Shown in pieces: positions 23,082 through 38,547 of a stretch of DNA of 64,000 nucleotides. The notes beneath the pieces are model-generated. The model saw only the letters and a list, made by a program, of their open reading frames with translations, was not told the DNA's origin and did no database searches. The position numbers and the translations under genes are program-made. The DNA is from Thermomicrobiales bacterium. GTDB taxonomy: Bacteria > Chloroflexota > Chloroflexia > Thermomicrobiales > CFX8. The stretch spans positions 6,174 through 70,173 of the forward strand of contig JAMLIA010000005.1 in assembly GCA_023954495.1 (NCBI GenBank). Direction: 5' to 3'. The stretch's first letter is position 1; every line of letters begins with the position of its first letter.

Positions 23082-24032
23082 ATGCCAAAACGGTGGATTG
23101 TCGGTGGGATCTTTGCTCTCGGAAGTGCGATGGGTTTGACGTGGTTGTACGCGCGGCGAATCGCTCCCTCCTGGCTGGAGACAGTACGGCTACGCGTGGC
23201 AGTACCGGGATTACCTGCCGAGCTCGACGGGCTCAAGGTCGCGCATCTGTCGGACGCGCACGCCGGCGGTCCGGGTGTCACGCTCGATCTGCTCTGGAAA
23301 GCGCGCCGGATTGCCGAGGCATATCAGCCCGACATCATCGCCCTGACCGGCGATTTCTACCATCAGGGTCAGCCAGTTCCGGATGGCGATCTGCTGGGCG
23401 AATGGCCCGAATCAGCGGTCGTGCTGGCTGTCCTTGGGAACCATGATCTACGAGGGACGCGAGCGGAGCTTGATACCGTTCTGAGTCGCCTGGAGGTCGG
23501 CAGAGTGCGGCTGCTGCGCAACGAGGCAGCCAGAATCACGCTTCGCGGTTGCGATCTCTGGGTGGCCGGGGTAGACGATCCATACTCTCAGCAGGCCGAT
23601 ATATCTCGCGCATGCGCTGATGTTCCCGATGAGGAGGACGTGCTGCTGCTTCTGGCGCACTCCCCGGCGATTGTGAACGATCTGCCGACGGGTCGGGTGC
23701 GTCTGGTGCTTTCGGGGCACACCCACGGCGGGCAGATCCGTCTGCTGCCGTCCGGGCGCGTGCCGTTTCAGAATTTGCTGCGCCAACTGAACCACGAACC
23801 ACCGCGCAACGATCCGCCGTTCTATCGCGGGATCCACTGGGTGAAGGGGGGCGTGGTTGTGATCTCAACCGGATTGGGCATGTCAGAATGGCCACTGCGC
23901 TTTCTGACCCGACCGCAGGTGATCCTGATTGAGCTGTCTCAACCTGCAACAGTTGGCCCGGACTGCGACGAGGTGGACCGCTACGTTGAACGAGTCGATC
24001 CCCCACCCTGGTATATCCGGCTGCTGTCGTAA
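23082..24032 (+). CDS. Membrane-anchored metallophosphoesterase (YkuE-like)
   Basis: MPE motifs HLSDAH, TGDFY, LGNHD and GHTHGGQ, plus an N-terminal hydrophobic segment. Confidence 0.8.
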   Translation: MPKRWIVGGIFALGSAMGLTWLYARRIAPSWLETVRLRVAVPGLPAELDGLKVAHLSDAHAGGPGVTLDLLWKARRIAEAYQPDIIALTGDFYHQGQPVPDGDLLGEWPESAVVLAVLGNHDLRGTRAELDTVLSRLEVGRVRLLRNEAARITLRGCDLWVAGVDDPYSQQADISRACADVPDEEDVLLLLAHSPAIVNDLPTGRVRLVLSGHTHGGQIRLLPSGRVPFQNLLRQLNHEPPRNDPPFYRGIHWVKGGVVVISTGLGMSEWPLRFLTRPQVILIELSQPATVGPDCDEVDRYVERVDPPPWYIRLLS

Positions 24033-26481: not shown

Positions 26482-27171
26482 ATGTTTCTCGACCCACTCT
26501 ATTTTGTGTTCATGATACCGGCGATGATCTTCGTCCTCTTCGCGCAGCATCGCGTCAAGAGCACGTTTCAGAAATACTCGAAGGTCATGACGAATCAGGG
26601 GATCACCGGGGCGCAAGCCGCCGCTGAGATCCTGAAATCGAATGGCATCTACGATGTGCAGATTGAGCACATTCCCGGTCAGCTCAGTGATCACTACGAC
26701 CCGCGCAGTAAGGTGCTGCGGCTGTCTGATTCAGTCTATGGCAGCAAGTCCGTCGCGGCTGTTGGCGTCGCGGCGCACGAGTGCGGGCACGCGCTGCAGC
26801 ACGCCAAGGGGTACGCGCCGCTGGCGATGCGAAGCGCGATTGTGCCGGTTGCGAATCTCGGCAGCATGCTTGGGCCGATCATGCTCATTGCCGGCGTCAT
26901 CATTGGTCTGACCCAGCTTGCCTGGCTTGGCATCATCTTCTTCGCCGCTGGTACGGTGTTCGCTGCCGTGACGCTGCCGGTGGAGTTCAACGCTTCGTCA
27001 CGCGCGATGGTGCAGCTCACGAATCTGGGCATCTTCGATCGAACTGAATACGACCAGGGCCGCAAGGTCCTGAATGCCGCCGCACTGACCTACGTCGCCG
27101 GCTTTGCCGCCGCGCTACTGCAGTTGCTGTACTACATCTCGCTCGTTACCGGCATGCGCCGAAGCGACTGA
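26482..27171 (+). CDS. Putative neutral zinc metallopeptidase (membrane, YugP-like)
   Basis: MFLDPLYFVFMIPA...HECGHALQH carries an HExxH motif, and the C-terminus has hydrophobic helices. Confidence 0.8.
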   Translation: MFLDPLYFVFMIPAMIFVLFAQHRVKSTFQKYSKVMTNQGITGAQAAAEILKSNGIYDVQIEHIPGQLSDHYDPRSKVLRLSDSVYGSKSVAAVGVAAHECGHALQHAKGYAPLAMRSAIVPVANLGSMLGPIMLIAGVIIGLTQLAWLGIIFFAAGTVFAAVTLPVEFNASSRAMVQLTNLGIFDRTEYDQGRKVLNAAALTYVAGFAAALLQLLYYISLVTGMRRSD

Positions 27172-27193
27172 CCGCATTCTGAACTCAGGTATG

Positions 27194-27225
27194 AACAAGG
27201 GCAGCCCGACCGGGCTGCCCTTGTT
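27194..27225. terminator. Bidirectional terminator hairpin (14-bp stem)
   Basis: aacaagggcagccc-gacc-gggctgcccttgtt lies between convergent genes. Confidence 0.7.
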
Positions 27226-27227
27226 GC

Positions 27228-28478
27228 TTACCCGGCAAGCGCGGCGGTGAGGCAGAGGTCCGCCCCGGGCGGGTCGCTGCGTTCGACGATCACGGTATCG
27301 CAGTCATTGAACGTGGCGAAGTCTCTGAGCGTCTCGGCCAGGCGGGCGTAGAAGCGCTCGTCGGCGCGGTCGACGAACGAGGGTTCCAGATGCAGTGCGC
27401 GGACGTAGAACTGACCGGTGGCGCGATCGGCCTTTGGATCAAGCCGCCCGACCAATTGATCGCGATAGAGGATCGGCAGGCTGAAGTACCCGTAGCGCCG
27501 CTTCGGTGCGGGCGTGTACGACTCCAGCATCAGCTCGAAGTCAAACATCGTCGCCGTGCGACGGCGATCCCAGACGAGGCTGTCGAACGGCGAGAGCAAG
27601 GTTGTGCGGCTCAGCGGGATGCGCTTTTCCAGCAACTCGGCCCAGACGTAGGCCTCATCGCCCCAGCCGCGGACTCGGGCTGGGACGATGAGGCCGCGCT
27701 CGACGAGGTCCTGCACGACAGCCTGCACGGTGCCGGTGCGCAAGCTGGAGTTGCCCCAGTTCTTGCGGAAGTAGTCCGGCAGCCACCGGGCGGTCGCGAT
27801 GCCCATGGCGGAGAACGCATGGGCCGCCAGCGCTCGGCGCTCGTCGTCGATGTCGGGGAGCTGCGCGTCGTCCCAGTCCGGCATGATTCGCTCTGTCAGG
27901 TCGTACCAGCGCTGGAACTTCTCGCGGCGATGCACCATGAACGTGCCCATCGTCCAGAGCAGCTCCAGGGCGAGGTTGGTCGGCTTGTTGCCGTACCAGG
28001 CCCACGGCTCGGCGCGAGTGCTGCCCTCGGGTGCGGTGAATGTCGTGCTGGAAACGGGGCCGAATTCGGTTGCGTGGGAGATGACCTGATCGAGGACTGC
28101 CGCATTCTCATTCAGCCACTGCACGGTGCGCGCATTCCAGCGTGTGCCGCTCGGGTCTGCGTATTCGAGCATCATGCGGCGGAAGTAGGGGAACAACTCG
28201 ACGGGGACGAATGCCGCCGCGTGGGCCCAGTATTCGAACAGCGCTCGATCTGGATAACACAGTTCGGAGAGCCATTCCTTGGGGTGGTTCCCGAGTCGAC
28301 TCCAGAGGACGATGTGATGGCTGCGAGCGACGACGTGGATTGTGTCGATCTGGAGCGCACCAAGGCGGTAGATGGTTTCGCGTAAGCGCTTCTTGGTCGG
28401 CCGTTTCGGCGTGGGCCCAGCGAGCTGCTGCGCGCCAATGGCCAAGCGTCGTGCCTCGCGAGGGGAGAGCTCCAGCAC
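27228..28478 (-). CDS. Winged-helix DNA-binding protein, YcaQ/AlkZ-like DNA glycosylase family
   Basis: The N-terminus LSPREARRLAIGAQQL...LGALQIDTIHVVARSHHIVLWSRL is typical of the DUF1006/YcaQ family. Assignment from memory. Confidence 0.7.
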   Translation of the reverse strand: MLELSPREARRLAIGAQQLAGPTPKRPTKKRLRETIYRLGALQIDTIHVVARSHHIVLWSRLGNHPKEWLSELCYPDRALFEYWAHAAAFVPVELFPYFRRMMLEYADPSGTRWNARTVQWLNENAAVLDQVISHATEFGPVSSTTFTAPEGSTRAEPWAWYGNKPTNLALELLWTMGTFMVHRREKFQRWYDLTERIMPDWDDAQLPDIDDERRALAAHAFSAMGIATARWLPDYFRKNWGNSSLRTGTVQAVVQDLVERGLIVPARVRGWGDEAYVWAELLEKRIPLSRTTLLSPFDSLVWDRRRTATMFDFELMLESYTPAPKRRYGYFSLPILYRDQLVGRLDPKADRATGQFYVRALHLEPSFVDRADERFYARLAETLRDFATFNDCDTVIVERSDPPGADLCLTAALAG

Positions 28479-28570
28479 GGTTCAATCCTCCTGCTACATG
28501 GATGGTGCGGTGCGACAGACGTGCATTGTAGCAAGGATGCGAACGTTTGTGCGGATTGGTTTGAGTGGGC

Positions 28571-29209
28571 TTAGCCGAGGACCCGTCCGAGCTTCGTCTG
28601 GTGCGATGGGCGGAGATCTGGCGCAGCGTGACGCAGGGCATCGACAGCAGCGACGAGCGCCGAGTGCGAGGCTGACTTCGCTTCCAGCTCGATCTCGCCG
28701 AACGTGATTTCGCGACCGTCGTTCAGGCGCGTTCCGGTGCAGCGGTCGATGGCAAGCTCAAATGAATTGCCATCTGGGTCGACGAGGTCGATGGCGGTGC
28801 GAACGTTCTCGATCGTCGCGACCGGCTGCAGTGGTGCGTCGCCGACGATGCTCCTCGCTGCCGCCAGCGGTTCGGGCAGCTTCGAGAGCCGGCCACCTGC
28901 AAGCAGCGCCTCCGCATCGTTGGCGCTGATTTGCGCGTTGATTTCCGGGCGTGAGGCGACGTGCGCCAGATCTGCGGACATAGCTTCGCGTGGTCCCTTG
29001 AACGTCAGCGTTGCTGCATCGTTGCTCGCTCGAACGCGCAGCGTCGATGACGCCGTCTCGAGTCGCGCGTCCGCAGAGTCGAGGTAGGTGTCATGCTGAT
29101 GGATGGTGCGCGTCCGCGCGATGCGTAACGGCGGGAACGACGTCGCATCGAGGAGTGAGGACACATCGTCAATCTCGAACTTGGCTTCGACTTCGCGTGG
29201 TTCAATCAT
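28571..29209 (-). CDS. CYTH-domain protein (triphosphate tunnel metalloenzyme family)
   Basis: N-terminal ExExK signature EVEAKF, then LRVR...TLTFKG beta-strands and a C-terminal IELE acidic strand. Confidence 0.8.
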   Translation of the reverse strand: MIEPREVEAKFEIDDVSSLLDATSFPPLRIARTRTIHQHDTYLDSADARLETASSTLRVRASNDAATLTFKGPREAMSADLAHVASRPEINAQISANDAEALLAGGRLSKLPEPLAAARSIVGDAPLQPVATIENVRTAIDLVDPDGNSFELAIDRCTGTRLNDGREITFGEIELEAKSASHSALVAAVDALRHAAPDLRPSHQTKLGRVLG

Positions 29210-29932
29210 AGGTCGCTCTCAGCAGATCGCGAATCCGGCGATCGTGGTTTGGCATGCCGCATTCGAGCATCCGCAACACGGTCGTTCCGTGGTCGTAGGG
29301 CACACGATGGATTGCGCCGTGCCACCCGGATCCTGGCGACCATTCGAACGAGCCCCAGACAGCGCGCCGATCCCCATCACGAGGTAACCCGCAAGCGGCC
29401 ACGTCGAAGAGGTGCAGCGCGCCGACCTGGCGGTGATAGGGGATGTGCAGGTGGCCGAAGACCAGAACACCGGCATCGAACGGTGCGACGAGATCGCGCA
29501 GGTCGTCCGGCGGCAGGTCGGGGAAGATGTGTCGATCCAGGTCGGTCGGGTTGGCATGCACGACCATCAGGCGATCGCCGTCCGGCGCGATGGTGTCGCT
29601 GAACTGCAATTCGTTCAGACGCCTGATGCGTGCGTCGCCAAGCTCCTGGCGCGTCCACTCGATCGACGCGAAGGCTTCTTGCGCCAAGGCTCTGGATCGC
29701 TGGCTCCATGCTCGATGATGTCGCGGTCGGTATTACCGACAAGCAGCACGTCGGCGCGTTCTGCAATCAGGTCGAGCGCTGCGGCTGGGTCGGGGCCATT
29801 CAAGCAGTAGTCGCCACCTGCGACAAGGCGATCGAATGTGCCGAGACGCTCAATATCAGCCAGCACAGCTCGCAACGCCTCCAGGTTGCCATGCACATCG
29901 GTGACGACCGCCACGCGAAGCTCAGTCGGCAT
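29202..29932 (-). pseudogene. Metallophosphoesterase (YfcE/MJ0936-like) with interrupted reading frame near 29687-29692
   Basis: The N-terminal part (VAVVTDVHGN, GGDY, VGNTDR) is in one frame to about 29689. The C-terminal part (VVHANP, FGHLH) continues in another frame (ORF 29202-29687). Confidence 0.7.
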
Positions 29933-30548
29933 CCTGCTGCTCGGCTTCCGATGCTGTCGTCGCCTCCGCCTCGGCGATCGCTTCGTCGAGATGGGCACGC
30001 AGGCGACCTGCAAAGTCCGAGCCCATCAATCTTCGCCAGGCTGTGATGAACGCTTCATAGGCGAGGAAGCGGTCTTCTGAACGGAACGCGACGAGGGTGA
30101 AGAGCGCTGCGTCATCGCGCTGACCGCGTGGCGAGGTCGTTGAGCCGCGGATACGCTGCTGGCGTTGCGCGACGGTGCCGCGTTGCCGATTCGTGGCGAT
30201 ATCGAGCAGCTTCTGCGTCCGTTGCTCGGCATTGGCGCGCGAGATGTGGAGCATCCGCTCGATCATGACGTCAGCGTCGTGGAGGTCGCCGATATGCTCC
30301 TGTATCTCCTTGACCTCGTTGATCAGGCTATTCGTCCCCGACGGCAGTGCAAATCGGAATAGCTCGAGTGAATAGCGCAGCCGCTTGGCCGCGATCCGCA
30401 GATTGTGGATCTCTTCAACGTTGTCCGGGTCGTCGACCCAGGGTGCGAAAAAGAGCATCTCATCCAGACGTGTCTGGATGACGAGACGGGCGTTATAGGC
30501 CGTCGAGCGATCGCAGCGGATGCCGCTGATGCGTCGTGCTTTAGCCAC
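29922..30548 (-). CDS. CHAD domain, second half (possible continuation of 30541-31020)
   Basis: HNLRIAAKRLRYSLELF and IGDLHDADV are CHAD repeat motifs. A candidate GTG at 30548 overlaps the upstream stop (GTGGCTAA). Confidence 0.65.
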   Translation of the reverse strand: MAKARRISGIRCDRSTAYNARLVIQTRLDEMLFFAPWVDDPDNVEEIHNLRIAAKRLRYSLELFRFALPSGTNSLINEVKEIQEHIGDLHDADVMIERMLHISRANAEQRTQKLLDIATNRQRGTVAQRQQRIRGSTTSPRGQRDDAALFTLVAFRSEDRFLAYEAFITAWRRLMGSDFAGRLRAHLDEAIAEAEATTASEAEQQDAD

Positions 30549-31020
30549 GAGAGTACTCCGCCAGGAAGCCACGGAACCGCACGTCGAAGCGCTCCGCGTC
30601 GAGCATGTCGAAATAGGCCAGCATGTCAGTGCGCTTGACCTCGCGTTCAGCGCGAATGTCGCGCAGCATGCGATTGATTGTCGGGTGCTCGGCCGCAGGG
30701 CGAGTTCGGCGATAGGCGACGAGCGTTTCGCGCAGGACATCGCAGTCGCGCACGCCGCCCAGCACGTCGGTCAGTTGCTTGATCGTGCGATGGTAGTAGC
30801 GATAGCGCTGGCGTGGGAAGCACTCAACGGCCACGTCCATGGCAGCCCGTAGTCGACGGGAACCGACCCGCATGTCGTGGAGCTGCTCGGGGTCGCGCCC
30901 GAGGAGCGTGCCCGCGCGATACGACATCATCGTGTCGAACCGCTGTTCGATGATCCTCCCGATTGCAATCCGGAACTCAGTCGCGCCATCCATGCCGTCG
31001 AACTGCTCTCGTCGTGCCAT
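30541..31020 (-). CDS. CHAD domain, first half
   Basis: HDMRVGSRRLRAAMDV and LGGVRDCDVL are CHAD repeat motifs. At 159 aa it is about half a normal CHAD domain. Confidence 0.65.
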   Translation of the reverse strand: MARREQFDGMDGATEFRIAIGRIIEQRFDTMMSYRAGTLLGRDPEQLHDMRVGSRRLRAAMDVAVECFPRQRYRYYHRTIKQLTDVLGGVRDCDVLRETLVAYRRTRPAAEHPTINRMLRDIRAEREVKRTDMLAYFDMLDAERFDVRFRGFLAEYSRG

Positions 31021-31069
31021 GGCGTGTCCTCATCTTTGCAACGGTGCGTGCCCTCAGGTTCGGCACAGA

Positions 31070-31723
31070 TCAGAGGATTTCCTTGACCTTCGTCCTGATC
31101 GTCCGGGCAATATCATCTACATCTTCGTTGCCGTCGATAACGGTGAATGCATACGACTGGCTGAGGCGCTCGAACTCGTCGAACACCCGCTGCTGATAGA
31201 TCTGAAACGATTCGGCCGGGTCGCTGCTCAGGCCGAGGTCCATTCCGACTTCGTAGCGGTCGATTGCTTTGACTGGCGTGCTGGGTACGCGATCCTTGGT
31301 CACCTCTGGCGGTACGCGCAAGTAGAACACAGCGTCTGGCTCAGGTGCGAAGCCATATAGCGTTTCCAGCCATGCGTGGTTTGCACCCCGCGCGACATCG
31401 CGGGCGAAGGCGGTGTAGATGTAGCGATCTGCGACCACGATTTCGCCACGCTCCAGTGCGGGGCGAATGACGTTTGCGACGCGATCAGTGAAGTCAGCGG
31501 CGTAGAACAGGCTGAAGGTGATCGGTCGTAGCTCTCCGGCCGCCTTGGCTTTGTGGATCGCCTTCGAGATGTGCGGCGACGTGCTCCAGTCGGTCCGGAT
31601 CGGCTCAATTTCGCGTCGACGCAGCCAATCCAGCAGCAAGCGGACCTGTGTGCTGCGCCCGGAGCGGTCGATGCCTTCGATCACGAACAGGCGTCCTGGA
31701 AGAGCGGGCGCTGCTGCGCTCAT
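31070..31723 (-). CDS. Thymidylate-kinase-fold P-loop protein, paralog B (non-canonical Walker A)
   Basis: LFVIEGIDRSGRSTQ is a P-loop with Arg in place of Lys, followed by ADRYIYTAFARD (DRY motif). Its start shares an ATGA overlap with the upstream stop. Confidence 0.75.
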   Translation of the reverse strand: MSAAAPALPGRLFVIEGIDRSGRSTQVRLLLDWLRRREIEPIRTDWSTSPHISKAIHKAKAAGELRPITFSLFYAADFTDRVANVIRPALERGEIVVADRYIYTAFARDVARGANHAWLETLYGFAPEPDAVFYLRVPPEVTKDRVPSTPVKAIDRYEVGMDLGLSSDPAESFQIYQQRVFDEFERLSQSYAFTVIDGNEDVDDIARTIRTKVKEIL

Positions 31724-32433
31724 GCCGACTCCATCCGTTCCAGCATTCCGGCGACGATCGAGCGTAACTCCAGTTGCTGTTTGCGCACCGGGTCGCGCGC
31801 ATCCAGCGCAACCATGTCGAATGGGCGCACGAATTGCTCGTATTCGGCGACGACGCGCTCCTGGAACTGACGGAACGATCCGAGCTGTCCACGCACTCCG
31901 GCTTGCTCGTCAGCTTCCTCGATCGTCGATTCACCGGCGATTCCCATGACCCGACCTAGCGAGGTATCGGCGTCAATACGCAGATAGACGGACAGATCGG
32001 GTCGGACGGCGAAGCCATAGAGATTGAGGATCCAGTCGATCTCGACGCCGCGCGCGATGTCGCGAGCGAACGCGGTATAGACATAACGATCGGCGAGCAC
32101 GACGTAACCGGCACGCAGGGCGGGGATGACCTCGTTGTCGTTGCGCTCGGCCATGTCGATCGCGTGCAGGATCGAGTAGGTGCGCGCTGCGAGCGTGCGT
32201 TGTCGACGCGCTTCGGCGATTGTCTTGGATACGAGCTTCGAGGAGTTCCAGGACGTGCGGACAACGCCATAGCCCTGCACGCGCAGCCAGGTGTCAAGCA
32301 TGTCGATCTGCGTCGCCCGACCCGACCCGTCGACACCGTCGACGGTGATGAGTGCGCCCGGGAATGTGTGGTGTTCCCAGGACGATGGATTGGCTGGATC
32401 AAGCCGACTGGTCGGCCAGCGATCATCGGTCAT
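31720..32433 (-). CDS. Thymidylate-kinase-fold P-loop protein, paralog A (non-canonical Walker A)
   Basis: LITVDGVDGSGRATQ is a P-loop with Arg in place of Lys, followed by ADRYVYTAFARD. Its start shares an ATGA overlap with the upstream stop. Confidence 0.75.
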   Translation of the reverse strand: MTDDRWPTSRLDPANPSSWEHHTFPGALITVDGVDGSGRATQIDMLDTWLRVQGYGVVRTSWNSSKLVSKTIAEARRQRTLAARTYSILHAIDMAERNDNEVIPALRAGYVVLADRYVYTAFARDIARGVEIDWILNLYGFAVRPDLSVYLRIDADTSLGRVMGIAGESTIEEADEQAGVRGQLGSFRQFQERVVAEYEQFVRPFDMVALDARDPVRKQQLELRSIVAGMLERMESA

Positions 32434-33287
32434 GCGGACCGCTTCTTCCCTTTGCGACGATCGCCCATATCAACGAGAACACGGGACGGGACATCGCCCA
32501 ACGAGTGGAATTCCGCCCTGACACTGCCGTGCTGCTCGATATCGTAAGACAGCAAACCGACCGCCTTGCCGGGCGAGCGATCCAGCAGCGACGGCGCGTT
32601 GACGACGGCCATAACGCGATTGTCGCGGTCAAGCTGCCAGACGTTTACGCGGTGCAGGTGCGCGCAGAGCACGAGGTCGACTCGCGCTTCGAGAAGCAGT
32701 TCGAGGATATCGCCGGCGTTCGGCAGAATGTCGCCCTCCTTCAGCTTCTTGCCCGGCACAGGCATCAGCGACCGATGCGTGCAGAAGATGCGGGTCAGCT
32801 TCGGCGATGAGCCCTCGAAGTACGCTAGTGCGCGATGCAGTGCGTCTTCCGGTATGACTGGTTCGCTATCCAGACCGACGATGCAGGCTTCGCGCGTGCG
32901 GTCGAAGAAGTCGACATCGGCGAAGAAGTCGAGGAACGGCGTGGTACGCGGTCGGTCGTGGTCGTTTTGCTCCAGCGCAGTGTCCGGCGCTGTCAGAAAA
33001 TAATCCAGGTCGGAGTCCGGCGGTCGAGTTGGACCGGGGCCACCAGCGAGGTAATCGCGATTCCCCGGGATCGCCCTGATGCGATCGAGCCCGAGTGAGG
33101 TCAGAAAATCAACCACCGGACCGAACTGCTCGACCAGTCCACGCTGCGTGAGATCGCCGCTCACGATGATCAGATCAGGTTCGAGCTTGTCGATGATCCC
33201 ACGTGCTAATTCCAGGCCGAGATCGACGTCCGGGCCCGGTGCATAGTGAAGGTCAGACAGTTGCACGATACGCAGTTGGCTACTCAC
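32430..33287 (-). CDS. Metallophosphoesterase (calcineurin-like), first gene of the ppk1-divergent operon
   Basis: MPE motifs VQLSDLHY, IVSGDLTQRG, IPGNRDY, CTHRSL and CAHLHRV. Confidence 0.8.
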   Translation of the reverse strand: MSSQLRIVQLSDLHYAPGPDVDLGLELARGIIDKLEPDLIIVSGDLTQRGLVEQFGPVVDFLTSLGLDRIRAIPGNRDYLAGGPGPTRPPDSDLDYFLTAPDTALEQNDHDRPRTTPFLDFFADVDFFDRTREACIVGLDSEPVIPEDALHRALAYFEGSSPKLTRIFCTHRSLMPVPGKKLKEGDILPNAGDILELLLEARVDLVLCAHLHRVNVWQLDRDNRVMAVVNAPSLLDRSPGKAVGLLSYDIEQHGSVRAEFHSLGDVPSRVLVDMGDRRKGKKRSA

Positions 33288-33502
33288 TCTCGATTGAATC
33301 GACCTAAAGCGTAGGACAGATGATACGCTGCAAAAAAGAAGTTTGTGTTAAGCCGCTGCGTCGAGTGTCGGGTACAGTGAATTCAATGGACCTCGGCGCG
33401 GCACCATCTGGCGTACTGGACAGCAGGCGATGCTGCGTCGATCATGCGACGTAAGCCATGTGGCACGTAGCTCGTGCCGCGACCGTGGTGAGATTCAGCA
33501 CG

Positions 33503-35662
33503 ATGACAAAGAGACGGCGACCCGTGACGAGCAGACGAGACCGAGCCAATGCCGCGGCGTTGAAAGCGCCGGAGCTGTACATCAACCGTGAGCTGAGTTG
33601 GCTGGAGTTCAATCGGCGCGTCCTCGAAGAGGCGCAGGACACAGGCAACCCGCTGCTGGAGCGCGCGAAGTTTCTCTCAATCTTCTCGTCCAATCTCGAT
33701 GAGTTCTTCATGGTGCGAGTTGCAGGAATCGTCGGTCAGGTGCGTGCCGGCGATGACACGGCTGCTCGCGATGGTCTCACCCCTGCGGAACAGCTATCGG
33801 CGATCAAGCTGCTGGCCACCGAGATGTCAGTCCGCCAGCGCGAATGCTGGCACGGCGAGATCGTCCCGGCGTTGCGCGAGCACGGTGTGCATATCGAGAC
33901 GTACGCAACGCTCTCAGGGCGCGACCGGCGCTCGCTGACCCGCTACTTCGAGCGGCAGATCTTCCCGGTGCTGACGCCGCTGGCGGTTGACTCCGGCCAC
34001 CCGTTCCCGCACATCTCGAATCGCAGCCTGAATCTGCTGATCCTCATTGAGGACGAACTGGGACGCCACATTGCGCGGATGAAGATTCCGCCGGTTCTGC
34101 CACGCTTCGTTCAGATCCCCGATGCTGACGGCGGGCCGCCGCCGAGTTCTCGGCGCAAGCTCCGCTACGTGATGCTGGAAGACATCATCGAAGCGAACCT
34201 CGATCAACTGTTCCCCGGCAAGCAGATTCAGAGTAGCTACTCTTTCCGTGTCACCCGCGATGCAGATTTCGAGGTCGCCGCCTCAACCGGCGACAGCCTG
34301 CTCAAGGCGATAGAACGTGAGCTCGATCAGCGTCTATTTGGCTTCCCCGTGCGGTTGACTGTTGACGACTCAATGCCGGCGGAGCTGCGCACCTGGCTCG
34401 CAGATCAGCTCGGCGCGGCAGAGACAGATGTCTATATGATGGATCGTCCGCACGGTCTGTCGGATGTCATCGAGCTGTATTCAATTGATCGTCCAGCGTT
34501 GAAGGACAAGGCGTTTGTGCCGCGCTATCCGGAAGTCCTGAGCCAGGCAGATTCGATCTTCCAGGCGATCCGCAAGCAGGATGTGCTCCTGTATCACCCG
34601 TACGATTCGTTCGCGCCGGTTGTCGATTTCGTGCGTCAGGCCGCGTCCGATGAGGATGTCGTCGCGTTCAAGCAGACGCTCTATCGCGTCGGTGCGCACT
34701 CGCCGCTGGTCGATGCGCTGATGGAAGCACGCGACGACGAAACGCAGATCGCAGTGCTGGTGGAGTTGCGTGCCCGCTTCGATGAAGAGAGCAACATCAA
34801 CTGGGCGCGGTCGATGGAGGCCGAGGGCATCCACGTTGCCTATGGCCTGCCCAAGCTGAAGACGCACTGCAAGATCGCGATGGTTGTCCGCCGCGAGGGT
34901 AACGATTTGCGGCAGTACATTCATCTCGGAACCGGTAACTACAATGTCGCGACGTCGAGAATCTATACCGATCTGGGGCTGATGACCTGCGATCCGGACA
35001 TCGCCGCGGACGTCACGGATGTCTTCAATTATTTGACCGGCTATTCGGCGCAGACCGAATATCGCAAGCTCCTCGTCGCACCGGTGAACCTGCGAACCAG
35101 CCTGATAGCGCTGATCGAGCGCGAGATGACGTTTGGCTCCAAGGGCCGCATCATCATGAAGGCCAACGCGCTATCCGATTATGGGATTGCTGAGGCGCTC
35201 TATCGCGCCGCGAAAGCCGGGGTGCAGATCGATCTCATCATCCGCGGCATCTGCGTCTTGCGCCCCGGAATCGAGGGACTGAGCGAGAACATCCGCGTCG
35301 TCAGCATTGTCGGCCGCTTCCTTGAGCACGTCAGATTGTTCTACTTCAAGCACGCAGGACCGGACGGCAAGGAGTGCATGTACGCAGGCAGCGCCGACCT
35401 GATGCGTCGCAACCTCGACTATCGGGTCGAGATCCTCTTCCCGATTCAGGATCGCTCGATCCTGGAGCGCCTGCGCGACGGCATTCTGGAGTTGCAGTTG
35501 CGCGACAACGTGCGTGCCCGTGAGCTCCAGCGCGATGGGTCATATGTGCGTTTGTCGCCAAAGGATGGCGAAGCGCCACTCGATTCACAACTGGTACATC
35601 TGAACTATGAGCCGAGCGCCGCCGCTCGCGCGTTCATCACTGCGCGGCAGGACCCTGATTAG
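33503..35662 (+). CDS. ppk: Polyphosphate kinase 1
   Basis: YINRELSWLEFNRRVLEEA, SNLDEFFMVRV, and two PLD-like C-terminal domains (KTHCKIAMVVR, GRFLEHVRLFYF). The ATG at 33503 (MTKRRRP) is chosen as the start. Confidence 0.9.
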   Translation: MTKRRRPVTSRRDRANAAALKAPELYINRELSWLEFNRRVLEEAQDTGNPLLERAKFLSIFSSNLDEFFMVRVAGIVGQVRAGDDTAARDGLTPAEQLSAIKLLATEMSVRQRECWHGEIVPALREHGVHIETYATLSGRDRRSLTRYFERQIFPVLTPLAVDSGHPFPHISNRSLNLLILIEDELGRHIARMKIPPVLPRFVQIPDADGGPPPSSRRKLRYVMLEDIIEANLDQLFPGKQIQSSYSFRVTRDADFEVAASTGDSLLKAIERELDQRLFGFPVRLTVDDSMPAELRTWLADQLGAAETDVYMMDRPHGLSDVIELYSIDRPALKDKAFVPRYPEVLSQADSIFQAIRKQDVLLYHPYDSFAPVVDFVRQAASDEDVVAFKQTLYRVGAHSPLVDALMEARDDETQIAVLVELRARFDEESNINWARSMEAEGIHVAYGLPKLKTHCKIAMVVRREGNDLRQYIHLGTGNYNVATSRIYTDLGLMTCDPDIAADVTDVFNYLTGYSAQTEYRKLLVAPVNLRTSLIALIEREMTFGSKGRIIMKANALSDYGIAEALYRAAKAGVQIDLIIRGICVLRPGIEGLSENIRVVSIVGRFLEHVRLFYFKHAGPDGKECMYAGSADLMRRNLDYRVEILFPIQDRSILERLRDGILELQLRDNVRARELQRDGSYVRLSPKDGEAPLDSQLVHLNYEPSAAARAFITARQDPD

Positions 35663-35837
35663 CGTCGGTTGTCTCGTCCGCTGCAGGTAACCTGCCGAAC
35701 TGTGCGAGCAGGTCCAGCAGCTCATGCTCGCGCAGGGCGAGGGTTGCACGGGCGTCCTCCAATGCCTGGAGAGCGTCGGCCAGGCGTTGCTCGGCGGCGG
35801 CGATCCTCGCGTCAGCGTCTTCGGCGTTGGACGTCAT
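35637..35837 (-). CDS. Small Ala/Leu/Glu-rich (coiled-coil-like) hypothetical protein (66 aa)
   Basis: Its ATG overlaps the stop of the upstream CitE-like gene (ATGA at 35834-35837). It overlaps the ppk1 3' end convergently by 26 nt. Confidence 0.4.
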   Translation of the reverse strand: MTSNAEDADARIAAAEQRLADALQALEDARATLALREHELLDLLAQFGRLPAADETTDANQGPAAQ

Positions 35838-36676
35838 GCGGACTGCCTGCTCGCGCGCGCCAGCAGCGCGCGGGCACGCTCGGCGACAGGCGGATCTACC
35901 ATCGCGCCATCGACCGACACGGCACCGTGGCCCTCGTGGACAGCGGCGTCGTACGCCTCAACGATCCGGCGAGCTTTGTCGACCTCGTCGCTCGACGGAG
36001 CGAAGGCGACGTGAATCGTCGGAATCTGCGCCGGATGGATCGCGAACTTGCCGTCGAAACCCATCGCTGCCGCCATCTCGCATTCGCGTTGCAGTGGCGC
36101 GGTGTCACGGAATTCCGGGCAGATGCTGTCCCACGCTGCGATCCCCGCCGCCCGCGCGGCCAGTAGCAGCATCCAGCGGGCAGCCTGTAGCTCTGCGCCG
36201 TCGGGCGTCCGCCGCATGCCGATCGAAGCGCTGAGGTCTTCTCCGCCCAGGAAGAGGCCGGTGACACCAATGGCATCGGCGAACGCTTCGGCGTGGAGCA
36301 GGGATCGAGGCGTCTCGATGTTGACAACGAGATCGCGGCCGACAGCGAGGCGACGAACTGGCTCGAGCTCGATCACACGATCGACCTTTGGCACGACGAG
36401 AGTGACATCGGCGTGGTCGGTAACCGCGCGCAAGTCGTCTTCAACGCAGCCGAAGCGTGGCGCATTGATCCGCACGAAGCGTTGCACAGGCGAGCCCGTC
36501 GGCCAGTCGGCGAGCGCCGCTGCGACGTGCCGGCGGGCCTCTTCCTTCTTCGCTAGCGGCACGCTGTCTTCCAGATCGAGGACGACAGCGTCAGCACCGC
36601 GCTCGGTCGCCTTGGCCAGCATTTCCTGCCGGTGGCCGGGCACGAAGAGGAGTGATCGGGGCAGAGGGATTGTCAT
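35834..36676 (-). CDS. HpcH/HpaI aldolase / citrate lyase beta subunit (CitE)-like lyase
   Basis: SLLFVPGHRQEMLAKA...ADAVVLDLEDSV is a CitE/malyl-CoA lyase-type N-terminus. The ATG at 36676 is chosen as the start. Confidence 0.8.
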   Translation of the reverse strand: MTIPLPRSLLFVPGHRQEMLAKATERGADAVVLDLEDSVPLAKKEEARRHVAAALADWPTGSPVQRFVRINAPRFGCVEDDLRAVTDHADVTLVVPKVDRVIELEPVRRLAVGRDLVVNIETPRSLLHAEAFADAIGVTGLFLGGEDLSASIGMRRTPDGAELQAARWMLLLAARAAGIAAWDSICPEFRDTAPLQRECEMAAAMGFDGKFAIHPAQIPTIHVAFAPSSDEVDKARRIVEAYDAAVHEGHGAVSVDGAMVDPPVAERARALLARASRQSA

Positions 36677-37323: not shown

Positions 37324-38547
37324 TCAGTTGTCCGCGGCCGCCTCGGGCAGCTCCGTTCGGAGAGCTTCGATGTTTTGCCGCATCACGGCGAGCATGTCCT
37401 TGCGTAAGCCGCGCGATGCTGTCGCCACGTCGTTGAGGATTTGCGATAGCGAGCGCGGGTCATCGGCAAGGATGTCGCCGACCTCGTCGTGGAGCGCGCT
37501 GCGGAACGCACTCTCCAGACCGCCACGAACAATTCGCAGCACCTTGTTGTCGCCGCCAAGTCCTGCCTTCTCGATCTCGGCGCGAACTTCGCGGATGCGG
37601 ATCGGCAGAGTTGCGACTTCGCCAATTGCGGTGCGGGCTCGAACTTGTGGCTCCACGTCCATCGACCACCGTTCGACGACCTCGAACGCGTTCGTCGCCC
37701 GTTCGGCGCGCATCGTGACTGCTGCCGCGACCATACCGGGTTCGGGCTCCGACGCTGGCTCGCTGGTCAGCAACGGCCGATGCTCTTCACCCCACAGATA
37801 GAAGCAGGCGCAACTGAGGCGGAAGTAGTAAATCGCCGAAATCAGGTTGTTGCGCGGCGTCACCGGTAGCTCATCAATGCGGGCCAGCGGGCCGATCAGC
37901 CGGCTCTCCGGAAGCCCGACGAAAAGCTGATCCGGACGTGGCGGAATCGTTACGACCTCGGACCGGTCTACTGTCGCGCGTCGACCAGTCGTGACGCGGC
38001 GCAGCAGGTGTTCGCTCATCTCCGATTCCGGCGAGAGGAAGACGCCACGGACAATGCGTGGAGCCGAGAGGCCATGCGCAGCGCGCGTCTCATCGACGAT
38101 CTGGTGCGCGGCACCGCCGACATCAAGCAGGTTGCTGACGACCGCCGCACTGACCTGGCTCGGTCGGATCCGATCCGGTGCGAATTTGGCGTCGGCTGCC
38201 TGGAGAATTGGTTGGTCTTTGCCCCGTTGCGTGCCAATCAGCAGAAAATCCGGGTTCTCAAGCTGATGACGATTTGCTTCCTTCGAAACTTCCGGGACAT
38301 CGTCGAGCCGCATCACCGAAACGATTCGATAGGCGTCGTCGTGAGGGATGGGCCACTCGGTGCCCTCGGCATCGCGGAGCACCTCGGCACAACGAATTGC
38401 CCAGCGATCACCGATGTGGCGGCTGGCACCTCCGCGGTCGCTCCAGATCATGAGTTGGCGGTCGAGTGCGGCAGCCATGAGGTGACCACCTGGTAGGCGC
38501 GTCGATCGGACATTCTCTCCGTCGCCCGCGCGATGATGTCCCGCCAT
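37324..38547 (-). CDS. Hypothetical protein (407 aa) with PD-(D/E)xK-like motif
   Basis: The long ORF starts at an ATG 11 nt after AGGAGG and only 15 nt after the RidA stop. ENPDFLLIG...ILQAADAKF resembles a restriction-endonuclease-fold core. No family recognised. Confidence 0.6.
   Translation of the reverse strand: MAGHHRAGDGENVRSTRLPGGHLMAAALDRQLMIWSDRGGASRHIGDRWAIRCAEVLRDAEGTEWPIPHDDAYRIVSVMRLDDVPEVSKEANRHQLENPDFLLIGTQRGKDQPILQAADAKFAPDRIRPSQVSAAVVSNLLDVGGAAHQIVDETRAAHGLSAPRIVRGVFLSPESEMSEHLLRRVTTGRRATVDRSEVVTIPPRPDQLFVGLPESRLIGPLARIDELPVTPRNNLISAIYYFRLSCACFYLWGEEHRPLLTSEPASEPEPGMVAAAVTMRAERATNAFEVVERWSMDVEPQVRARTAIGEVATLPIRIREVRAEIEKAGLGGDNKVLRIVRGGLESAFRSALHDEVGDILADDPRSLSQILNDVATASRGLRKDMLAVMRQNIEALRTELPEAAADN

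Follow-up and report, generated by a model that had tools for sequence, protein, structure and literature searches.

PPK3 has been described only in 2024-2026, mainly as the missing archaeal polyphosphate (polyP) kinase in organisms without PPK1 or PPK2. In Sulfolobus acidocaldarius, two adjacent "thymidylate kinase" paralogs have been shown to assemble into a heterotetramer with polyphosphate kinase activity (Höfmann et al., JBC 2026, PMC12995831; preprint 2024). In this enzyme (SaPPK3), catalysis is assigned to Saci_2019 (cPPK3) and regulation to Saci_2020 (rPPK3); neither protein has dTMP kinase (dTMPK) activity, and the inactivity of the Sulfolobus rPPK3 has been explained by the loss of the DRX arginine (PMC12995831). 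SaPPK3 is a polyphosphate:ADP phosphotransferase that is reversible, with ATP formation from ADP and polyP strongly favoured, and its genes lie in an operon with the order SixA-PPX-cPPK3-rPPK3-CHAD; most genomes with PPK3 were reported to be without PPK1 and PPK2 (PMC12995831). Here, we describe a locus in a 64,000-nt stretch of a Thermomicrobiales bacterium (Chloroflexota; GenBank assembly GCA_023954495.1, contig JAMLIA010000005.1, positions 6,174 to 70,173), hereafter the window, in which a PPK3-type gene pair stands in a seven-gene cluster that is divergent from, and adjacent to, ppk1.

In E. coli, the polyP synthase is linked genetically to a polyP hydrolase in the ppk-ppx operon, and the yeast endopolyphosphatase Ppn2, which is a metallophosphoesterase, provides a precedent for polyP cleavage by that superfamily. 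By comparison with the E. coli operon, a tblastn search of the 64-kb window found no Ppx-GppA gene; it also found no SixA gene and no third gene for a dTMPK-fold protein (TMK). CHAD is a polyP-binding module and triphosphate-tunnel metalloenzymes (TTMs) hydrolyse tripolyphosphate (10.1101/567040, PMC4641920, PMC8233210). E. coli YgiF, CYTH-CHAD fusions and stand-alone CHAD proteins (10.1101/567040; PMC4641920) resemble the window locus in that a TTM-type CYTH domain and a polyP-binding CHAD are found in a polyP context. Unlike in the CYTH-CHAD fusions, CYTH and CHAD are separate genes in the window, with a metallophosphoesterase gene (MPE2) in between, and CHAD itself is made as two polypeptides.

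We consider it probable (roughly 0.6) that the window carries a lineage-specific Thermomicrobiales polyP-turnover locus, in which synthesis by PPK1 is combined with a PPK3-type mobilisation operon. As in SaPPK3, two adjacent dTMPK-fold paralogs (TMK1 and TMK2) are found in the same order, with a hydrolase gene (MPE1) upstream and CHAD downstream, in a polyP context; the dTMP site is lost, and the profile scores of TMK1 resemble those of Saci_2019. The polyP-metabolism operon partners expected of PPK3 (PPX, SixA, CHAD, Nudix, Pst) are represented here by CHAD, CYTH and the adjacent PPK1. In contrast to SaPPK3, the window organism is a bacterium with an adjacent ppk1, two metallophosphoesterases and a CYTH protein take the place of PPX and SixA, and CHAD is split into two genes. 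Moreover, Arg is found in the Walker A of both window subunits whereas both Sulfolobus subunits have Lys, TMK2 has the DRX Arg that Saci_2020 is without, and the lid of TMK1 is acidic. An earlier note on this DNA, made from its letters and open reading frames (ORFs), had proposed a polyP-centred module in which a TMK-fold pair may shift phosphate between polyP or triphosphate and a nucleotide-like substrate; the core of this proposal is supported by the homology to PPK3 and by the polyP links of CHAD, CYTH and PPK1, and its remark that no characterised system was known is superseded by the SaPPK3 operon (PMC12995831). The locus represents a bacterial lineage that keeps a PPK3-type pair beside ppk1 under strong selection and offers a natural setting for testing whether polyP is built by PPK1 and used as an energy buffer by PPK3. 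It also nominates two metallophosphoesterase families and the split CHAD as new polyP-associated components.

Among PDB entries, the best match of both TMK1 and TMK2 was the S. tokodaii cPPK3 homologue STK_15430 (2plr/5h70), with E-values of 4.6e-42 and 2e-43, respectively; dTMPKs matched TMK1 at best at about 1e-12 and TMK2 at best at 6.5e-14. Hidden Markov models (HMMs) of the two subunits were built from the upstream and downstream genes of non-Thermomicrobiales bacterial pairs, with the S. acidocaldarius locus included for scoring. Saci_2019 scored 296 bits with the upstream-gene HMM and 240 bits with the downstream-gene HMM, a pattern also seen for TMK1 (284 and 227 bits). Saci_2020 scored 89 and 132 bits with the same two models, and TMK2 was ambiguous (259 and 254 bits). 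In a neighbour-joining (NJ) tree without bootstrap, the TMK1 clade was basal to the upstream-subunit clade and the TMK2 clade was basal to the downstream-subunit clade. Because the HMM scores and the NJ tree place TMK1 with the upstream subunits, TMK1 is classified as the cPPK3 ortholog. TMK2, which is the downstream gene like Saci_2020, is probably the rPPK3 ortholog as suggested by gene position and the NJ tree, its HMM score being ambiguous. The window pair is assigned by its sequence to the published PPK3 family and is, hence, not new in principle.

The dTMP site points in the same direction. In an alignment with fragments of the A. aeolicus and P. falciparum dTMPKs, the column of the stacking Phe holds H in TMK1 and Y in TMK2, and the column of the phosphate-binding Arg holds M and F, respectively; cPPK3 proteins have H/F at the two columns. 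In TMPKs, these two residues stack on the thymine and bind the phosphate. Public annotations call the pair 'dTMP kinase'. In the profile check suggested in the earlier note for ordinary dTMP kinases with an intact site, TMK1 scored 71.9, below the cut-off of 83.25 of the NCBIfam dTMP-kinase model (TIGR00041), and TMK2 was borderline at 83.7; the pair does not correspond to ordinary dTMP kinases because the dTMP site is not intact and the scores lie below or at the cut-off.

Comparison with other Thermomicrobiales loci (numbered with the prefix L) showed that the order divergent ppk1, MPE1, TMK1, TMK2, CHADa, CHADb, MPE2 and CYTH was the same in all relatives with a TMK1 identity of 96% (L001-L004), 95% (L009), 82% (L005-L008), 71% (L010), 67% (L011), 65% (L090) and 56% (L089). 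The seven genes and the divergent ppk1 are kept in 13 Thermomicrobiales loci, a fragmented fourteenth contig (L091) has the same order, and the block is intact in L089 and L090 although the flanking genes are reshuffled. A neighbourhood confined to very close relatives had been named beforehand as a possible refutation of a functional module; the survey found the same neighbourhood in relatives with as little as 56% TMK1 identity, even where the flanks are rearranged. In all Thermomicrobiales loci compared, the ppk1 ortholog (713-721 aa) points away from the operon. The ratio of nonsynonymous to synonymous substitutions (dN/dS) was lowest for TMK1 (0.03) and ranged from 0.04 to 0.19 for the remaining cluster genes, with values of 0.04 for both TMK2 and ppk1, 0.07 for MPE1 and 0.19 for CYTH, the least constrained gene of the cluster. 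The kinase pair is, thus, not decaying, and the strong purifying selection reflects a maintained function of whatever kind.

A scan of species-representative genomes showed that at least 597 stretches encode TMK relatives, and the tandem pair was found in 87 of the 88 loci compared. Among the matches listed, PPK3-like pairs were found in Melainabacteria/Gastranaerophilales, Acidobacteriota, Planctomycetota, Nitrospirota, Chloroflexota, Ignavibacteria, Omnitrophota and others, a bacterial spread that is, as judged from these matches, broader than the "few bacteria" in the abstract of PMC12995831. The pairs of other bacteria are nearly all annotated as 'dTMP kinase', and thousands of such bacterial annotations are probably wrong. 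Outside Thermomicrobiales, the immediate upstream neighbour of the pair was Ppx-GppA (often together with an HD domain) in 10 of 65 loci and His_Phos_1 in 3/65, and the immediate downstream neighbour was CHAD (11/65), Ppx-GppA (3/65) or His_Phos_1 (3/65). Neither Metallophos nor CYTH was among the recurrent neighbours in these 65 loci, and ppk1 adjoined the pair in 1 of 77 loci outside Thermomicrobiales. The combination of ppk1 with MPE1, MPE2 and CYTH is therefore a Thermomicrobiales innovation. New in the clade, according to these comparisons, are the linkage to ppk1, the replacement of PPX/SixA by metallophosphoesterases and CYTH, the two-gene CHAD and the Arg-type Walker A in both subunits. 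The other bacterial pairs (L012-L088) are similar to the window pair in having orthologous subunits, in the downstream subunit commonly carrying Walker-A Arg together with DRY, and in having CHAD, sometimes split, as a frequent neighbour. By contrast, their upstream subunit always has GKST and YEAGMDL, and their neighbours are Ppx-GppA(-HD) and His_Phos_1.

The features of the locus are listed in Table 1. The ORF coordinates, overlaps, gap, spacer and motifs of the earlier note were all reproduced from the ORF list and the minus-strand sequence, and its motif-based domain order agreed with the Pfam matches (Metallophos, Thymidylate_kin twice, CHAD, Metallophos, CYTH and PPK1). Its eight ORF segments were also exact in their coordinates, whereas the number of genes is seven: CHAD is encoded by two real genes and MPE2 is one broken gene, both of which had been overlooked.

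Table 1. Features of the polyP locus and their positions in the 64,000-nt window
Feature	Position	Strand	Basis
ppk1, polyphosphate kinase 1, 719 aa	33503..35662	+	four-domain Pfam match
Divergent spacer between ppk1 and operon, 215 nt, presumed promoters	33288..33502	.	sequence
MPE1, metallophosphoesterase, 285 aa, operon gene 1	32430..33287	-	Pfam Metallophos 1.4e-12
TMK1, classified as cPPK3 ortholog, 237 aa	31720..32433	-	Pfam Thymidylate_kin; PDB best match STK_15430
TMK2, second PPK3 subunit (probable rPPK3 ortholog), 217 aa	31070..31723	-	Pfam Thymidylate_kin; STK_15430
CHADa, N-terminal half of split CHAD, 159 aa	30541..31020	-	Pfam CHAD profile positions 2-133
CHADb, C-terminal CHAD half with helical tail of ~110 aa, 208 aa, GTG start	29922..30548	-	Pfam CHAD 168-226
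MPE2, ApaH/SapH-like metallophosphoesterase, frameshifted in window	29202..29932	-	Pfam Metallophos, N-part only
CYTH / triphosphate-tunnel metalloenzyme, 212 aa, last operon gene	28571..29209	-	Pfam CYTH 1.5e-21

The genes of the cluster are tightly packed, with 4-nt ATGA overlaps at 32430-32433 (MPE1/TMK1) and 31720-31723 (TMK1/TMK2), 8-nt overlaps at 30541-30548 (GTGGCTAA, which contains the CHADa stop and the CHADb GTG start) and 29202-29209 (MPE2/CYTH), and an 11-nt overlap at 29922-29932 between CHADb and the 5' segment of MPE2. The sole gap within the cluster is 49 nt long (31021-31069, TMK2/CHADa). The CHADb GTG start is internal to a longer ORF (29922-30740), and the MPE2 segments fall in the ORFs 29615-30013 (with the gene start at 29932) and 29202-29687. 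As part of the proposed turnover locus, the seven genes would form a translationally coupled operon that is transcribed divergently from ppk1, probably as one transcript. A scan for promoter and terminator consensus sequences found nothing above shuffled background that could split the operon and no convincing internal terminator, and no Rfam family was matched in 27000-36500, even at a permissive threshold.

The product of ppk1 matches Pfam PP_kinase_N, PP_kinase, PP_kinase_C_1 and PP_kinase_C over its full length (E 1e-40 to 1e-72). An in-frame ATG at 33458 would also be possible as the start codon, and the relatives favour 33503. The spacer between ppk1 and the operon is weakly conserved outside close relatives, apart from a -10-like sequence, GCGTATCAT (33310-33330, minus strand), which is located about 35 nt 5' of the MPE1 GTG and is common to the window, L001, L005 and L090. 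This sequence is a candidate promoter element of the operon; the consensus scan gave no convincing match in the spacer.

CHADa and CHADb together cover positions 2-226 of the Pfam CHAD domain (PF05235), and hence represent one domain in two genes. When concatenated, they are colinear with the single CHAD domain of Chlorobium tepidum (3e0s/6qv7, residues 21-255), and the split point falls in the linker that joins the two helical halves. CHAD was found as two ORFs in every relative (158-161 aa and 205-221 aa), and the CHADb of the relatives has its own GTG or TTG start that overlaps the CHADa TAA. A sequencing error was ruled out as the source of the split, which is present in all relatives, and a programmed frameshift was ruled out as well, with every CHADb having its own start codon. 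Elsewhere, the CHAD halves are separated by an in-frame stop and a spacer, or by an ATGA overlap. Because the junction geometries differ among phyla, the two-polypeptide CHAD represents a recurrent arrangement. Split CHAD genes beside PPK3-like pairs were seen in four other phyla, in metagenome-assembled genomes labelled Chthonomonadales (L038:11433-12595), Chlorobiaceae (L045:8481-9449), Ignavibacteria (L058:6582-7564) and Bacteroidetes (L084:8157-9195). In L005 (9459-9776), and also in L006-L008, all of them 82% relatives, an extra Lys/Arg/Glu-rich ORF of 105 aa, which is probably helical, lies between TMK2 and CHADa and is without a Pfam match.

Among the hydrolase genes, MPE1 occupies the PPX slot of the Sulfolobus operon and of many bacterial PPK3 operons. 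Its motifs SDLH, GD, GNRD, H171 and H210xH212 are invariant in 29 homologs, and the family (62 matches) was found only in Thermomicrobiales/Chloroflexota. MPE2 has the motifs DVHGN, GGD, GNTD, VHAN and GHLH; the His of the GNH motif of metallophosphoesterases (PF00149) is replaced by Arg in MPE1 (GNRD) and by Thr in MPE2 (GNTD). For an AF2 model of MPE1 (mean model confidence, pLDDT, 85.8), the nearest Foldseek matches were YydD, Lmo2642, GpdQ and Rv0805, all of them generic. The best PDB matches of the intact MPE2 ortholog were 3rqz (a Sphaerobacter metallophosphoesterase, 3e-15), 3qfm (SapH-like) and 2qjc (a putative diadenosine tetraphosphatase). In these fold and sequence searches, MPE1 and MPE2 showed no specific similarity to any characterised polyphosphatase, with relatives limited to GpdQ/Rv0805-like and ApaH/SapH-like proteins. 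The basic C-terminal tail of MPE1, RRKGKKRSA, was considered as a polyP-binding element and was dropped, as it is missing in the distant orthologs L089 and L090.

In a tblastn search, the intact MPE2 ortholog (242 aa) was split over two frames of the window at residues 82-86, with a net insertion of 2 nt in the window relative to L001 and L005. Compared with the 99.3%-identical contig L094, the window has four single-base indels (+C, -G, +C, +T; net +2) at 29661-29690, within about 26 nt, and no further indel across 4.68 kb. MPE2 is intact, at 242-243 aa, in 14 related loci (L001-L011, L089, L090 and L094). The break in the window represents either a very recent (complex) mutation or a local assembly or consensus error.

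The CYTH protein (PF01928) has the conserved signature of an N-terminal ExExK, an RxR, a Lys and a C-terminal ExExE, and the residues E6, E8, K10, R58, R60, K71, R87, E89, E172, E174 and E176 are invariant in 7 orthologs. This residue pattern fits a triphosphate-tunnel phosphatase; a search of PDB sequences with the CYTH protein gave no match, and an exact look-up of its sequence found no recorded protein. A third metallophosphoesterase gene (23082-24032, plus strand, 316 aa, Pfam Metallophos 1e-11) is also found in the window, and an equivalent Metallophos gene for 308-319 aa lies about 2-9 kb from the cluster in L001, L005, L089 and L090, even with rearranged flanks; a loose linkage to the polyP locus is possible.

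In the proposed turnover locus, PPK1 would polymerise phosphate from ATP into polyP, and the operon, whose core order of phosphohydrolase, cPPK3, rPPK3 and CHAD is like that of the Sulfolobus PPK3 operon, would represent the side of polyP mobilisation. TMK1 and TMK2 would form a heteromer that most likely transfers phosphate between polyP and ADP/ATP, and the favoured direction, by analogy to SaPPK3, would be the regeneration of ATP from polyP. A heterodimer of CHADa and CHADb could tether this machinery to polyP. MPE1, MPE2 and the CYTH tripolyphosphatase could then hydrolyse polyP, the short remnants (P3/P4) left by a processive transferase, or over-phosphorylated nucleotide by-products.

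The Walker-A motif reads DGVDGSGRATQ (GSGRAT) in TMK1 and EGIDRSGRSTQ (DRSGRST) in TMK2, with the Lys changed to Arg in both. In the TMK1 clade (at least 55% identity), Arg was found in 45 of 45 scorable members, compared with 0 of the 70 next matches from other phyla, all of which have Lys; likewise, 13/13 TMK2 orthologs read DRSGRST. The bacterial upstream subunits of the other phyla examined have EG[IV]DGSGK[ST]TQ / WNSS / DRY / YEAGMDL and are close to cPPK3, and the downstream subunits usually have EGTDGxGR[ST]TQ with DRY kept. The downstream subunit of Gastranaerophilales is an exception in that the Walker-A Lys is kept. The acidic lid of TMK1, IEEADE, differs from the YEAGMDL of bacterial upstream subunits and from the basic, QEAGAD-type lid of archaeal cPPK3s; DRY, WNSS and the basic patch ARRQR (the counterpart of AKKKD) are still found. 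TMK1 therefore departs from the signature of a catalytic subunit in that both the GK[ST] P-loop and the expected lid are replaced, with DRY and the basic patch present. In TMK2, DRY is kept and the lid reads YEVGMDL. The loss of the DRX arginine that marks a regulatory subunit was found neither in TMK2 nor in other bacterial downstream subunits, compared with DGY in Saci_2020, and this loss seems specific to archaeal rPPK3. These natural Lys-to-Arg variants of both subunits could be used to probe how catalysis proceeds and how the work is divided between a catalytic and a regulatory subunit.

Several of these observations weigh against a polyP-turnover locus with an active PPK3. With Arg in place of the Walker-A Lys in both subunits, the kinase activity of the clade is not assured. 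In addition, the putative catalytic subunit, TMK1, is without the YEAGMD/basic lid, and the upstream subunits of all other phyla examined still have GKST. TMK2 has the DRX arginine, and the division of labour between a catalytic and a regulatory subunit is therefore not simply transferable. Furthermore, bacterial polyphosphatases are not known to include a metallophosphoesterase.

It is possible, though less probable than an active transferase, that in this clade the PPK3-like pair has ceased to be a nucleotide-linked kinase and represents a non-catalytic or differently catalytic polyP-binding module, which would leave PPK1 as the sole polyP kinase; the module could then act as a granule organiser, a regulator of PPK1 or an adaptor that gives polyP to the MPE and CYTH hydrolases. 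The uniform Walker-A Arg of the clade, which is absent from the matches outside it, and the DRSGRST of all TMK2 orthologs argue for such a change, as does the observation that, in other lineages, only the presumed regulatory subunit encoded downstream typically has this Arg. Moreover, the change to Arg coincides with the tight linkage to ppk1 and with the replacement of the PPX/SixA neighbours, and the lid of TMK1 is acidic. By comparison, TMK1 keeps DRY, WNSS and ARRQR, and Arg, which is likewise positively charged, may still be able to contact phosphates, both of which speak for a remaining kinase. The low dN/dS of the pair (0.03-0.04) indicates a maintained function, the kind of which it does not specify, and is hence compatible with either explanation.

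More tentatively, and with some doubt on our part, several of the unusual features could be joined into one scheme, with a rebuilt PPK3 pair that has a new activity alongside PPK1, with MPE1 and MPE2 as unrecognised bacterial polyphosphatases that replace PPX, and with the two-gene CHAD as a heterodimeric polyP anchor. Such a new activity could, for example, be nucleotide-independent polyP handling, the use of a different phosphoryl acceptor or the control of PPK1 at the granule. 

It is improbable that the operon hydrolases act mainly on nucleotides (Ap4A/Np4, cyclic nucleotides or NTPs), so that the cluster would link polyP to nucleotide signalling, with MPE2 as an ApaH-like Ap4A hydrolase, MPE1 as a CpdA-like phosphodiesterase and CYTH as a nucleotide cyclase or triphosphatase. 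The PDB relatives of MPE2 (3qfm and 2qjc), the similarity of the MPE1 fold to Rv0805 and GpdQ together with the name CpdA in some sources, and a weak NCBIfam cyaB match of the CYTH protein could suggest these roles; however, the matches are weak or generic and far under the curated cut-offs. Furthermore, CYTH has the full TTM phosphatase signature and is associated with CHAD as in the CYTH-CHAD fusions, and MPE1 is found in the PPX position of other PPK3 operons. Finally, the idea that the pair consists of ordinary or redundant dTMP kinases whose genes are adjacent by chance, which the Pfam Thymidylate_kin matches, the marginal TMK2 score and the 'dTMP kinase' annotations could suggest, is effectively refuted by an E-value gap of 30 orders in favour of cPPK3 over true dTMPKs, by the loss of the thymine-stacking Phe and the phosphate-binding Arg in proteins related to Saci_2019/Saci_2020, which are without dTMPK activity (PMC12995831), and by the conservation of the cluster as a unit across rearranged contexts.

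Two further genes are found near the locus. An ORF of 407 aa without a Pfam match is located at 37324-38547 (minus strand), and its position is kept in L001-L008, where the ORF (406-407 aa) is also without a Pfam match. A gene for an AlkZ-like DNA glycosylase (27228-28478, minus strand) lies 92 nt past CYTH on the same strand, likewise in close relatives. This gene was placed outside the conserved unit because its placement differs in L089, where it is found on the ppk1 side, and because it is absent in L090.

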